Virus record (IMG/VR): IMGVR_UViG_2737471840_000004
Coordinates: 1-25,134 of that record
DNA: 25,134 bases
Strand: one strand, 5' to 3'
Source of the DNA: a virus
Taxonomy: Duplodnaviria > Heunggongvirae > Uroviricota > Caudoviricetes
Positions 7,847 to 25,134 of this stretch are shown here, one piece after another. A program made the position numbers and the translations under genes. The first letter of the stretch is position 1; each line of letters opens with the position of its first letter. Below the pieces are notes generated by a model. That model saw nothing but the letters and a program-made list of their open reading frames with translations. It ran no database searches and was not told the DNA's origin.

Positions 7847-9064
7847 ATGCCAACTGAATATGCTCGCGACAACCTTGGTCGCTATCAGACTGATGGATTA
7901 AGTGCAAAAGACTTTAACAAGGTCTTCGATCTTATCCGTAAACAGCAGCGTCAGAATCGGCGAAACGCGCGACGTACACTCACCCCAAGGATTATGGGGA
8001 TGCGTAACCGCGAACTTGAGGCATTCCTCAGCCTTGGGAAAAAGAAAGATGGCACCTACTTTACGCCCGAAGATATACGCAGCTTCAACACCTCAAGGCA
8101 GGCTCATAAAACAAAATTCAAGAGCACGGTACCCGGCATTACCTATGCTCAGCTGGTGGCGCAGTCCACCAGCATTGATATAAAACGCGCTAACAACAAA
8201 GTTTCTGATGGCACAGGGATCAAAGCCGCGACATTCCTCGGGCTAAAACACAACCTTGCATTGATATCTGTTAATGCCTCGGATGAGTCGGTCCACCAGC
8301 ATCACCGTGTCAGAATTCGATTTGAGGAATGGGATAAAGCCGTTGAGGATATTGCTGAAGACGGTGCGAAAAAAGCCCGAATCGCTGCCGATCTCTGCAA
8401 GGGCCGGGTATCTTTCGACTGTGATTGTGGACGCCATCAATACTGGTATCGTTATATGGCCACTGCTGGTAACTATGCTGTCGCGCCGCCAAAAGAGTAT
8501 GCCTTCCCCAAGATCCGCAACCCTGATCTGACTGGTGTAGCCTGCAAACATGTGTTGCACGCTATGACGCGTTTTCAGTCTCCCACATGGCACAAGGCCA
8601 TCATTATTGCCCTGGAAAAAGCAGCTGAACAGGTAGCCTTCGGCGATGACAAGCGGAAGACAACAACCTATTTCAAAGGCGAACTGGCTAAATCGCTCGC
8701 GCGCAACCGGACAACAACGACGGATCAGGCTAAAGCTGCGCGTGAGTATGAGCTGTATCTGAAATCTCAGGATGCATTAGGCAAAAAACTACGCGCCAAA
8801 GATAGCGCCACGGACAACGTTCGCCGGTTGTTAAAAAAAGCTCGCACCACGGCAAACAGGAAGAATGCCGAACTAAAAGCATCGCGGGTGAGGGAAGCCC
8901 AGGCTCGCGCTGAAGCCGACGCCCTCAAAAAAGCCCTGCAAACGCAGGCGAACAACCTCATAAAGTTTTTCATGAGTCAGGGAATGGACAAGGCCGCTGC
9001 CACTGCGCAGGCGCGAAGCATTCTTGAGACACAAATTAACGAAGCCCGTAAACGGAAAGGATAA
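7847..9064 (+). CDS. SWIM-type zinc-finger protein with basic coiled-coil tail
   Basis: 405-aa ORF; FDCDCGRHQYW...GVACKHVLHA fits CxCxnCxH; C-terminal 120 aa Lys/Arg/Ala-rich; AGGGA upstream of ATG. Confidence 0.65.
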   Translation: MPTEYARDNLGRYQTDGLSAKDFNKVFDLIRKQQRQNRRNARRTLTPRIMGMRNRELEAFLSLGKKKDGTYFTPEDIRSFNTSRQAHKTKFKSTVPGITYAQLVAQSTSIDIKRANNKVSDGTGIKAATFLGLKHNLALISVNASDESVHQHHRVRIRFEEWDKAVEDIAEDGAKKARIAADLCKGRVSFDCDCGRHQYWYRYMATAGNYAVAPPKEYAFPKIRNPDLTGVACKHVLHAMTRFQSPTWHKAIIIALEKAAEQVAFGDDKRKTTTYFKGELAKSLARNRTTTTDQAKAAREYELYLKSQDALGKKLRAKDSATDNVRRLLKKARTTANRKNAELKASRVREAQARAEADALKKALQTQANNLIKFFMSQGMDKAAATAQARSILETQINEARKRKG

Positions 9065-12211
<3,147 letters not shown>

Positions 12212-14904: not shown

Positions 14905-14980
14905 TGGTGGCCCCTACCGGACTTGAACCGGTGACCGTGCGATTATGAGTCGCCAGCTCTAACCACTGAGCTAAAGGGCC
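14905..14980 (-). tRNA. tRNA with CAU anticodon (Met, or Ile2 if lysidine-modified)
   Basis: Hand-folded 76-nt cloverleaf: GGCCCTT acceptor, GCTC/GAGC D-stem, anticodon loop CUCAUAA, TTCAAGT T-loop, encoded CCA. From memory it resembles ileX-type tRNA-Ile2. Confidence 0.85.
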
Positions 14981-16607: not shown

Positions 16608-16683
16608 TGGTGCCGATTAACGGACTCGAACCGCTGACATCCTGCTTACAAGGCAGGCGCTCTACCAACTGAGCTAAACCGGC
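16608..16683 (-). tRNA. tRNA-Thr (anticodon UGU)
   Basis: Hand-folded 76-nt cloverleaf: GCCGGTT/AATCGGC acceptor, anticodon stem CCTGC/GCAGG, loop CUUGUAA, TTCGAGT T-loop, encoded CCA. Confidence 0.85.
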
Positions 16684-16685
16684 AT

Positions 16686-16761
16686 TGGCGATGGTGGATG
16701 GATTTGAACCATCGACCCGTTGATTAACAGTCAACCGCTCTAACCGCTGAGCTACACCATC
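16686..16761 (-). tRNA. tRNA-Asn (anticodon GUU)
   Basis: Hand-folded 76-nt cloverleaf: perfect GATGGTG/CACCATC acceptor, anticodon stem GTTGA/TCAAC, loop CUGUUAA, TTCAAAT T-loop, encoded CCA; 2 nt from tRNA-Thr. Confidence 0.85.
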
Positions 16762-22767: not shown

Positions 22768-23148
22768 ATGTCTGATAAAGTAACAGTAAAGCAAACTATC
22801 AACAAAGCGACTTCAATCTACAAAATTGAGCAAATCACTGTTGGCAAGCCAGGATCTGAACAATACCGTCGTGCTTTCGAGCTTGCCGATCAGCTTGGTT
22901 TAAAACACCCGGATTGCATTGAGCATGTATTTCCGACCTATGCTGATGAGCAATGTACTCATGTTCTTACCGAAGAGGATTTTTTCAGCACTGAAGAACG
23001 AGAAGGCGTTGATCGCTGTATTGGTGTGATTTGCTCTTCAGTGAGTTATGAGTTATTCCCTAATGTCCATGAAGATGGTGGTATTGGATACCAATTCCTG
23101 TACGAAGGCGATGAGCTTAAATGTTATCAAGCATCGCCGGAATTTTAG
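22768..23148 (+). CDS. hypothetical protein
   Basis: 126-aa ORF with AGGGA 6 nt upstream; acidic, several Cys; last rightward gene before the apparent chromosomal junction. Confidence 0.5.
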   Translation: MSDKVTVKQTINKATSIYKIEQITVGKPGSEQYRRAFELADQLGLKHPDCIEHVFPTYADEQCTHVLTEEDFFSTEEREGVDRCIGVICSSVSYELFPNVHEDGGIGYQFLYEGDELKCYQASPEF

Positions 23149-23209
23149 GCTTGAAATTGATCATCGCATTCTCCATTCGTTTTGAGTTACAAGAACCCAA
23201 TGCTGGAGG

Positions 23210-23635
23210 TTACGGGAGGGAGTGCATAAACATGGGCTGTGGAAGTGCCCTTTTTGAGCAAATAAGGAAATCCTGAATTGTGTGGGAGAGTGTGTTCAGC
23301 GTGGTGTGCTTGGTCAAGACCGAATGGGCTACGGATTGAGAGGGCACGATGGGTGCATGCTGTCTGTCTGCTGATTGCAGTAAAATTAGTGGGATGACGC
23401 CACAACTCATAAAAAAAGGTTTAATTGGCGGACTGGAGTGCGTCTCGCTAATAAAACTGTATAAATCCGCGATCACCAGATGCGGTTTCCATTGCAAAAT
23501 ATGCTCTTTTGCTAACAGGAGATTATTGATTCCTGATACCAGAAATGAGGAGCTGAACCTGCCAGAATGATTAAGCAAGGCCTCTATCCCTGTGCGGGTA
23601 AAGTGGCACCGGTCAATCACTAAAATTTTAAGCAT
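23210..23635 (-). CDS. RcsA/LuxR-family N-terminal-like domain protein without HTH (possibly truncated)
   Basis: 141-aa ORF; N-terminus LKILVIDRCHFTRTGIEALL resembles the RcsA-type pseudo-receiver start; no C-terminal LuxR helix-turn-helix and no room for one before the next gene. Confidence 0.4.
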   Translation of the reverse strand: MLKILVIDRCHFTRTGIEALLNHSGRFSSSFLVSGINNLLLAKEHILQWKPHLVIADLYSFISETHSSPPIKPFFMSCGVIPLILLQSADRQHAPIVPSQSVAHSVLTKHTTLNTLSHTIQDFLICSKRALPQPMFMHSLP

Positions 23636-23830
23636 AAACGTTTCGCATTCAGAAGAGGGGCAATCGACTTTCTGGTTTCAGAAAGCCCTTCATCATAGAG
23701 AACTCCGATGAGTGCCAAATGCGGGAACTACGCCGCTAATTATGCTTAATTCTTGCTTTTAGCAGGCGGTGAATAAAAAGGTTGAAATTCATTTTCTTCC
23801 GGGCAAAAATGCCATTTCACACATTAGCTT

Positions 23831-23874
23831 TGCAGGACGACCTGCAAACGCTTCTTTCACCGGGGACGGCCCCA
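23831..23874 (+). promoter_or_regulatory. guanidine-II riboswitch (mini-ykkC) upstream of sugE/gdx
   Basis: Two hairpins with ACGR tetraloops: tgcagg-ACGA-cctgca (23831-23846) and gggg-ACGG-cccc (23862-23873), 15-nt linker, then GGAG and ATG at 23892. Confidence 0.6.
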
Positions 23875-23891
23875 TTGTTCTGGAGCCTGAT

Positions 23892-23938
23892 ATGTCCTGG
23901 ATCGTTTTATTAATTGCAGGTTTGCTCGAAGTTGTCTG
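23892..23938 (+). pseudogene. sugE: sugE/gdx 5' fragment, interrupted by IS insertion
   Basis: MSWIVLLIAGLLEVV matches the SugE/Gdx N-terminus; the frame then runs into the IS end GTAAGCG at 23938 where the conserved Trp codon would be. Confidence 0.7.
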
Positions 23939-25134
23939 TAAGCGTCAACGGAGCACCGTATTGACGCTTATTTATTGGTGAGTACTACGTTCCATGGCAG
24001 GAGTTCGTCAACTCGGTTGGAAGGCCATTCCGGCAGTACGCTCAGGATATGGCGCATATACGCTTCCGGATCGATACCGTTCAGACGGCAGGTGCCGATC
24101 AGCCCGTACAACAGTGCTCCACGCTCGCCGCCGTGATCGCTGCCAAAGAACATAAAGTTTTTCTTTCCGAGACAGACTGCACGAAGCGCTCTTTCCGCAG
24201 CATTATTATCCGCCTCCGCCAGACCGTCATCACTGTAATAACAGAGGGCATCCCACTGATTCAGTACATAGCTGAACGCTTCGCCCAGTCTGGATTTTTT
24301 CGACAGCGTACCATTCTTCTCCACCATCCATTCATGCAGCGACGTCAGTAACACTTTGCTTCGCTGCTGCCTGACGGCAAGACGCTCTGACTCCGGTAAT
24401 CCCCGTATTTCATCCTCGATGGCGTACAGTTCACTGATTCGCTTCAGGGCTTCTTCTGCCGTCGCACTTTTGCTGCTGATGTATACATCGTGGATTTTTC
24501 GCCGGGCATGGGCCCAGCACGCAACTTCTGTCAGTGCACCACCTTCACGTTCTGCACTGAACAACCTGTCGTAACCTGTGAACGCATCCGCCTGCAGGAT
24601 ACCCCGGAAGGGGCGGAGGTGTTGCTCCGGGTGTTTCCCCTGCCGGTTCGGCGAGTACGCGAACCAGACCGCTGGAGGAGATGACGAACCCACATTGCGA
24701 TCATCCCGGACATACGTCCAGATACGCCCTGTTTTCGCCTTTTTCTGACCCGGTGCCAGTACCTTTACCGGTGTGTCATCAGTGTGAACCTTGCGGGTGT
24801 TCATTACATAACGGTACAGGGCATCATTCACCGGTGTCATTAACTGGCAGCACGCGTCAACCCAGTTGGAGAGTAAGGCCCGGCTCAGTTCGACACCCTG
24901 GCGGGCAAAGATTTCACTCTGACGATACAGTGGCAGATGTTCGCAGTATTTTCCCGTTAACACGCGGGCAAGTAATCCGGGGCCCGCGATACCACGCTCT
25001 ATCGGGCGGGACGGCGCCGGTGCTTCAACAATACAGTCACATTTTGTACAGGCTTTTTTTACCCGTTCTGTGCGGATCACTTTCAGGGCACTGCTCACCA
25101 GTTCCAGCTGTTCAGCGCTGACTTCCCCCAGATA
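23938..25134. mobile_element. IS66-family insertion sequence, right end only (continues beyond right edge)
   Basis: Terminus begins GTAAGCGTCAACGG (IS66-family ends begin GTAA); contains a minus-strand IS66 transposase ORF whose stop lies 30 bp inside the end. Confidence 0.8.
23968..25134 (-). CDS. IS66-family transposase (TnpC), C-terminal portion
   Basis: Contains CWAHARRK and DDTPVKVLAPGQKKAKTGRIW; the frame stays open upstream of the track start (a GTG at 25098) to the window edge, so the N-terminus is outside the window. Confidence 0.9.
   Translation of the reverse strand, partial: YLGEVSAEQLELVSSALKVIRTERVKKACTKCDCIVEAPAPSRPIERGIAGPGLLARVLTGKYCEHLPLYRQSEIFARQGVELSRALLSNWVDACCQLMTPVNDALYRYVMNTRKVHTDDTPVKVLAPGQKKAKTGRIWTYVRDDRNVGSSSPPAVWFAYSPNRQGKHPEQHLRPFRGILQADAFTGYDRLFSAEREGGALTEVACWAHARRKIHDVYISSKSATAEEALKRISELYAIEDEIRGLPESERLAVRQQRSKVLLTSLHEWMVEKNGTLSKKSRLGEAFSYVLNQWDALCYYSDDGLAEADNNAAERALRAVCLGKKNFMFFGSDHGGERGALLYGLIGTCRLNGIDPEAYMRHILSVLPEWPSNRVDELLPWNVVLTNK

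Follow-up and report, generated by a model that had tools for sequence, protein, structure and literature searches.

Gene 25 of a P1-type phage encodes a strongly basic late-operon protein with a divergent SWIM-type finger

The open reading frame (ORF) at positions 7847–9064 of the window (the whole 25,134-nucleotide stretch that was analyzed, positions 1 to 25,134 of the IMG/VR record IMGVR_UViG_2737471840_000004) was identified by its sequence and gene order as gene 25 from a phage or phage-plasmid of the P1 type, in which it stands second in the late operon 26-25-7-24-6-5. Its product, gp25, contains a divergent SWIM-type finger in which a conserved insert of 37–38 residues separates the putative zinc ligands, and which is not a member of the curated Pfam family PF04434. 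The gene was already known in a model phage, and the observation made in an earlier note from the letters of the DNA, a SWIM zinc-finger protein with a long basic tail inside a spike cassette, was confirmed as far as these features are concerned; the additional view that such a protein is foreign to the cassette did not hold, as gp25 belongs, and is conserved, in the late operon of P1 that encodes tail and neck proteins. The reading of its role that we tentatively favor is a low-copy protein of the virion neck or tail lumen.

The translated ORF was 99.5% identical to P1 gp25 (YP_006549.1) over aa 1–405, with the same length, and two residues were the sole difference between the two proteins. 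The profile phrog_1722 ('tail protein') matched gp25 with an E value of 1.3e-227 (protein 1–405, profile 1–410), and phrog_4315 was the only other PHROG match. The 5.3 kb around gene 25 showed 99% DNA identity to P1 and 98–99% identity to P7, RCS47, SJ46, and other P1-like phage-plasmids. In the P1 records, gene 25 is annotated as 'tail stability', with a note that likens aa 277–403 to the myosin coiled coil. The ORF of the window shares with P1 gp25 its slot between genes 26 and 7 in an operon with the following features.

7412–7430, + strand: late promoter LP26 of 26-25-7-24-6-5 (-22 box AAATGACTA, -10 TAGAAT), annotated as LP26 in NC_005856
7460–7837, + strand: gene 26, gp26, T4 gp53-like 'plug' of the baseplate, which holds the wedge and hub together (phrog_1269, E 3e-40; cryo-EM papers)
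7847–9064, + strand: gene 25, gp25, 405-aa 'tail stability' protein (ATG ORF)
9068–9796, + strand: gene 7, gp7, head-side 'stopper' of the neck, a hexamer (identical to PDB 9ums_B 'Gp7'; PMC12810830)
9783–10568, + strand: gene 24, gp24, T4 gp15-like tail terminator (P1 annotation, phrog_1767, cryo-EM papers)
10570–11586, + strand: gene 6, gp6, baseplate hub (phrog_1390, literature)
11579–12211, + strand: gene 5, gp5, spike/needle with an OB domain and a beta-helix and without lysozyme (PF04717, phrog_430, literature)

LP26 was an exact match and occurred once in the window. The AAGGGA ribosome-binding site of gene 25 overlaps the stop codon of the upstream gene, and gene 7 starts 3 nt past the stop codon of gene 25. 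The gene 26 product was identical to the PDB chains 9ay5_S and 9vzk 'Gp26', the six-fold plug that is called a 'binding agent' joining the wedge and the central hub in the cryo-EM literature. The term 'spike cassette' was apt for the spike and baseplate genes and too narrow for the whole, as a neck stopper (gp7) and a tail terminator (gp24) are encoded there as well. Gene 25 owes its definition to amber mutants and is counted as essential and morphogenetic. When genes 26 and 25 were blocked by CRISPRi in published work, plating fell only about 10-fold (0.11 for gene 25, which the authors blamed on an ineffective roadblock), and the roadblocks were non-polar on the essential downstream genes 7, 24, 6, and 5. 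As regards an internal promoter that would account for the non-polarity, a second late-promoter match was absent from the window; the sole weak sigma-70-like site, TTAACG-18-GATAAT (9036–9065), lies just 5' of gene 7 and was not above chance.

Within gene 25, four features were delimited.

7904–7987, + strand: gp25 aa 20–47, arginine-rich N-terminal helix (helix 20–39 in both models), then a conserved RTLTP motif
8225–8629, + strand: gp25 aa 127–261, core of beta-sheet and SWIM-type finger
8420–8551, + strand: putative zinc site C192-x-C194 ... C233-x-H235 with a conserved 38-aa insert (YRYxAxxG ... FPKIRNP), from the translation
8699–9061, + strand: gp25 aa 285–405, polybasic Lys/Arg/Ala-rich helical tail with a weak heptad repeat (composition, AlphaFold2, heptad analysis)

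The finger motif of gp25 consists of C192-D-C194, 38 residues, and C233-K-H235, so that the CxCxnCxH signature read in the earlier note is present. gp25 contains four cysteines in total, three of which sit in the motif alongside H235, and the pattern C.C.{6,60}C.H appeared in 42 of 200,000 shuffles of the same composition (2e-4). The four ligands were invariant in 35 of 35 close homologues and in 34 of 34 distant ones (down to 22% identity). When the full-length relatives from two homologue searches were considered, CxC-(36-43)-C[KR]H was found in all 251 of them, and only fragments lacked the pattern. The alignment of the 34 distant relatives (22–43% identity) contained 14 invariant columns, of which 11 were located within aa 192–235; these comprised the four ligands and seven positions of the insert (Y203, A205, G208, E217, P221, N225, and G230).

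The Pfam SWIM model (PF04434) did not match P1 gp25 even at E=10. Below-threshold SWIM matches were obtained for 9 of the 34 distant relatives (best 15.3 bits against the cut-off of 19.6, mostly to the CxH half), and SWIM was the sole Pfam family that recurred, with no other found in more than two of the 34. A Foldseek search of predicted viral structures returned small phage proteins as the top matches of gp25, and two of these, from phages Motura and BcepSauron, were named 'SWIM-type domain-containing protein' (SWIM-type matches at E 1e-4 to 4e-3). In the predicted model, the CxC closes a beta-strand and the CxH opens a helix, which is the placement seen in SWIM fingers (PF04434; e.g., ZSWIM8, PDB 9rwz_M). 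The finger was called divergent SWIM-type because of the sub-threshold Pfam matches, the Foldseek matches, and this strand and helix placement. It differs from SWIM fingers in that a conserved insert separates the ligand pairs, in that an Arg-rich helix and a polybasic coiled coil are fused to its core, and in being encoded among virion genes. In classical SWIM fingers, as originally described, the spacer is shorter than the 38 residues of gp25. The SWIM-type assignment of P1 gp25 appears to be new, as no link between SWIM and gp25 was found in the papers searched, and the same applies to the invariance of the insert and to the conservation of charge and gene neighborhood.

The tail (aa 285–405, 121 residues) contains 15 Lys, 14 Arg, and 24 Ala residues, which corresponds to 44% Lys/Arg/Ala compared with about 28% elsewhere in the protein. 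Its net charge is +16 and its pI is 10.7, with a pI of 10.1 for the whole protein. A second basic segment is found near the N-terminus, where aa 21–40 have a net charge of +5 and where R38, R39, L45, and T46 were conserved among close homologues. The AlphaFold2 model of gp25 (mean pLDDT 84, pTM 0.72) consists of a globular part (aa 1–290), an 84-residue helix (294–377), and a 23-residue helix (382–404). The long helix contains 18 strongly hydrophobic residues, 11 of which fall at a/d positions in one heptad register, and the heptad is continuous and weak; the coiled-coil character of the tail is thus real but modest. The tail of about 120 residues, rich in Lys/Arg/Ala and resembling a coiled coil, had been described in the earlier note, and this description of the features was accurate.

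The family of gp25 was collected by a profile search of 1.84 billion representative proteins, which yielded 662 clusters at E values up to 1e-3, almost all of 320–500 aa. The named members come from Enterobacterales, Vibrio, and Photobacterium, and homologues were also found in Acinetobacter and Xanthomonas phages. The pI was above 9 in 251 of 251 full-length relatives (median 10.06), and the tail was net positive in 98.8% of these relatives, though the tail sequences do not align. The invariant columns and the conserved pI therefore indicate that the precise surface of the finger and the positive charge as such are under selection. The basic character was kept in every one of these relatives, and the nucleic-acid-binding flavor attributed to the protein was a fair reading of its sequence.

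Gene neighborhoods were compared in 83 loci, many of which are near-identical, and a homologue of the plug gene lay directly upstream of the gp25 homologue in 80 of them. The 181-aa family (gp7 in P1) directly followed it in 83 of 83. In distant relatives with capsid and sheath families of the P1 type, the gene order was tail-fibre-like gene, plug (phrog_1269), gp25-like gene (phrog_4315), 181-aa gene, 100-aa gene, and major capsid gene; the gp25 family occurs only beside tail and head genes. This arrangement is seen at 11121–11968 in locus L090, with equivalents in L003, L004, and L085–L164; the conserved 181-aa gene (phrog_4597) came directly after the homologue of gene 25 in all of the distant loci examined, and the 100-aa gene (phrog_5187) was next after it in L090. 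The candidacy of the 181-aa gene as a homologue of the stopper gp7 was rejected, with BLASTP, hhalign, a profile search of the PDB, and Pfam all negative. Because all these homology searches were negative, the relation between the 181-aa gene and gp7 is one of positional analogy alone. A head role, considered for the distant homologues on account of their position between the terminase and major capsid genes, was also rejected; it was set aside because the 512-aa neighbor is tail-fibre-like and not a portal and because the upstream gene is a plug homologue.

Two records of individual relatives deserve description. In phage D6 (L165), genes 26 and 25 overlap by 8 nt, and a cassette on the opposite strand (4728–6646), which encodes a hypothetical protein, two HigA-type antitoxins, and a RelE-type toxin, lies between genes 25 and 7. 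In Xanthomonas phage Rb1 (L004), the gp25 homologue at 6809–7888 is labelled 'transcriptional regulator MvaT, nucleoid associated protein'. This label was without support in our searches and probably comes from the basic coiled-coil tail.

Evidence from virions was taken from published work. LC-MS/MS of CsCl-purified P1 virions detected gp25 with 2 unique peptides and 8.4% coverage. The check by virion mass spectrometry that the earlier note proposed has thus been answered in the positive as to detection, but the signal is weak. In the same data, gp7 was also represented by 2 peptides, and its copy number has since been established as 6, while gp5, gp26, PmgA, and UpfC were missed, although all four are modelled in the virion. 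Neither PmgB nor PmgR, both essential factors, was detected in this preparation. The prohead protease Pro, which is not expected to be stoichiometric in the virion, was detected with 3 peptides, and the preparation otherwise listed only structural and Dar proteins. Carry-over of gp25 is possible because its signal was at the two-peptide threshold and Pro was also detected.

Among the products of 26-25-7-24-6-5, gp25 is the only one placed by no virion structure, whether in the two cryo-EM studies or in the PDB. The near-atomic maps (2025 preprint and 2026 paper) place gp26, gp7, gp24, gp6, and gp5, and gp25 is named in neither. P1 Gp7 (9ums) and Gp26 (9ay5, 9vzk) are present in the PDB, and gp25 matched none of its entries; PDB sequence and profile searches with gp25 gave coiled-coil matches only, with E values above 0.1. 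The comparison of the gp25 model with solved virion proteins of the baseplate, tube, sheath, and neck gave no fold match. Searches of Pfam at E values up to 10 and of NCBIfam gave no match for gp25, and a 2022 HHpred analysis in the literature found no role for it. The luminal tape measure Sit was not resolved in the cryo-EM study either. The lumen of the P1 tube is negatively charged, and the connector channel is unusually wide, at about 40 Å. The fibres, the UpfB tripod, and the baseplate rim were seen at low resolution only, and the fibre anchor was not resolved. gp25 is one of the few essential P1 morphogenetic proteins left without a location or role after the proteomics and cryo-EM of 2022–2026.

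Gene 7 has the same 'tail stability' label as gene 25 in the P1 annotation. Genes 7 and 25 are also said to have been classed together in the 1983 abstract of Walker and Walker. Because gp7 is the head-side stopper, the label may reflect failed or unstable head–tail joining; this reading of the label relies on the annotation and on that reported classing.

gp25 is essential, late, found in the virion preparation, and invisible in symmetric maps, and its charge and finger surface are conserved. We therefore favor, at a confidence well short of even, a place for it in the virion as an asymmetric protein of low copy number that binds a polyanion and is located in the neck or the lumen of the tail. 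Such a protein would stand outside the symmetric building blocks of the baseplate, tube, sheath, and neck, and would be bound in low copy, breaking the symmetry, in the lumen at the head–tail junction or in the tail tube. The conserved surface formed by its finger and insert would be the docking site for a protein partner, itself conserved, and its basic helices would hold a polyanion, either the leading end of the DNA or the acidic wall of the tube lumen. Without gp25, no stable joined head–tail particles would be obtained, and at infection the protein would leave with the DNA because of its position in the DNA path. The earlier note's suggestion of an ejected DNA-binding or pilot protein may also hold, although the protein is weak in virion mass spectrometry and not placed by cryo-EM. 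The wide connector channel could accommodate, and perhaps even require, an additional component in the lumen. The conservation of the downstream partner gene in all 83 loci may be counted toward a neck link, and the absence of detectable gp7 homology in this 181-aa gene would count against the neck reading; the adjacency of plug gene 26 in 80 of the 83 loci may point to the baseplate as much as to the neck.

Only slightly less probable, and the main rival, is that gp25 is a non-structural assembly factor, which would act transiently in tail assembly and then be released, leaving only traces in purified virions; examples would be a protein that assists the gp26 plug in connecting wedges and hub or one that keeps the sheath or baseplate extended. 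In favor of this explanation, gp25 is missing from the two virion reconstructions and the PDB when its operon neighbors are all modelled, and the minimal mass-spectrometry signal, with Pro also detected, agrees with it. The pairing of genes 26 and 25 across deep divergence, with the overlap in D6, also speaks for it, and a poorly seated gp26 plug would plausibly give contraction-prone, 'unstable' tails. In T4, hub and fibre assembly use the non-virion catalysts gp51 and the coiled-coil protein gp57A, which are essential for tail morphogenesis and are not ordered in the finished particle. Unlike these two proteins, with which it shares no homology, gp25 was detected in virions and is strongly basic, and a chaperone role does not explain the universal net positive charge or the long basic helix. 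Moreover, the presumed factors PmgB and PmgR were not detected in the virion preparation in which gp25 was, and gp53-like plugs of other phages work without a gp25-like neighbor, as is known from T4.

It is less probable still, and in our estimate improbable, that gp25 is a flexible external or peripheral structural component with no nucleic-acid role that was missed through disorder, for example, in the poorly resolved fibre-attachment region of the baseplate or as a sheath or collar accessory. The low resolution of the fibres, UpfB tripod, and baseplate rim would leave a place for it, gp25 was detected in virions, and its long helix could form a coiled-coil strut. A peripheral 6-fold component of 46 kDa, however, would usually be visible at low resolution at least and be better represented in mass spectrometry, a pI kept above 9 throughout the relatives would be unusual for an exposed strut, and gp25 has no similarity to fibre or adaptor proteins. 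A tape-measure role, a label found on genes of this operon in some related phage records, was rejected, as the 84-residue helix of gp25 is too short; that part is played in P1 by Sit, which has about 750 helical residues. The suggestion in the earlier note that the protein could be a regulator, that is, a zinc-finger basic DNA- or RNA-binding protein controlling late expression or translation outside morphogenesis, could appeal to the zinc-finger-like motif, the basic helices, and the MvaT label of one distant homologue, but it is very improbable because the mutants have a specific morphogenetic tail defect and because a late structural operon contains the gene. In addition, gp25 was found in virions, belongs to a family that occurs only beside tail and head genes, and matched no regulator family.

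For the favored low-copy protein of the neck or lumen, functional analogies are available in other phages. The T4 DNA-end protector gp2, the Mu circularisation protein gpN, and the P22 ejection proteins are virion proteins of low copy number that lie in the path of the DNA; productive particles require them, and they bind or protect DNA ends. The likeness of gp25 to these proteins would be one of function only, as no sequence, profile, or fold homology to T4 gp2, Mu N, or P22 gp7/16/20 was found (PHROG, Pfam, NCBIfam, and fold search). gp25 might be a P1 virion protein that travels with the DNA, sitting as a dimer or low-copy plug in the neck channel of about 40 Å and holding the injected ends, a more specific proposal that we regard as a long shot. 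Its zinc-finger core and basic coiled coil would grip the DNA end, and the protein would then be injected. The P1 DNA of abortive transductants takes a circular form in which a protein links the two ends. The proposal would account for this protein-linked circle of abortive transductants, in which the ends would be shielded from exonucleases until cyclisation. We know of no identification of the end-joining protein of abortive transduced DNA.

If gp25 were a DNA-associated neck or lumen protein, it would bear on how P1 DNA is retained behind a 40 Å channel and on how injected and transduced DNA is protected and circularised. P1 serves as the standard phage for generalised transduction in E. 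coli, and its relatives are widespread phage-plasmids with resistance genes. The features of gp25 through which its role may be approached are now testable, namely the four putative zinc ligands, the invariant 38-residue insert, and the obligatory positive charge.

Other parts of the window differ from reference P1 or carry tRNA genes. The left end (1–990) is absent from reference P1, as the match to P1 begins at 994 and that to RCS47 at 142, and it contains an ORF (334–876, - strand) for an Ead/Ea22-like protein (PF13935, E 7e-38). The right end (23135–25134) has no counterpart in P1-like phages. It contains an ORF (23968–25098, - strand) for an IS66-family transposase (PF03050, E 5e-98) with the IS66 C-terminal element, and it is probably an insertion or cargo junction in a P1-like element. 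Three tRNA genes, all on the - strand, were found at 14905–14980, 16608–16683, and 16686–16761, with the anticodons CAT, TGT (Thr), and GTT (Asn); the CAT tRNA is tRNA-Ile2 in the P1 record and is presumably lysidine-modified.
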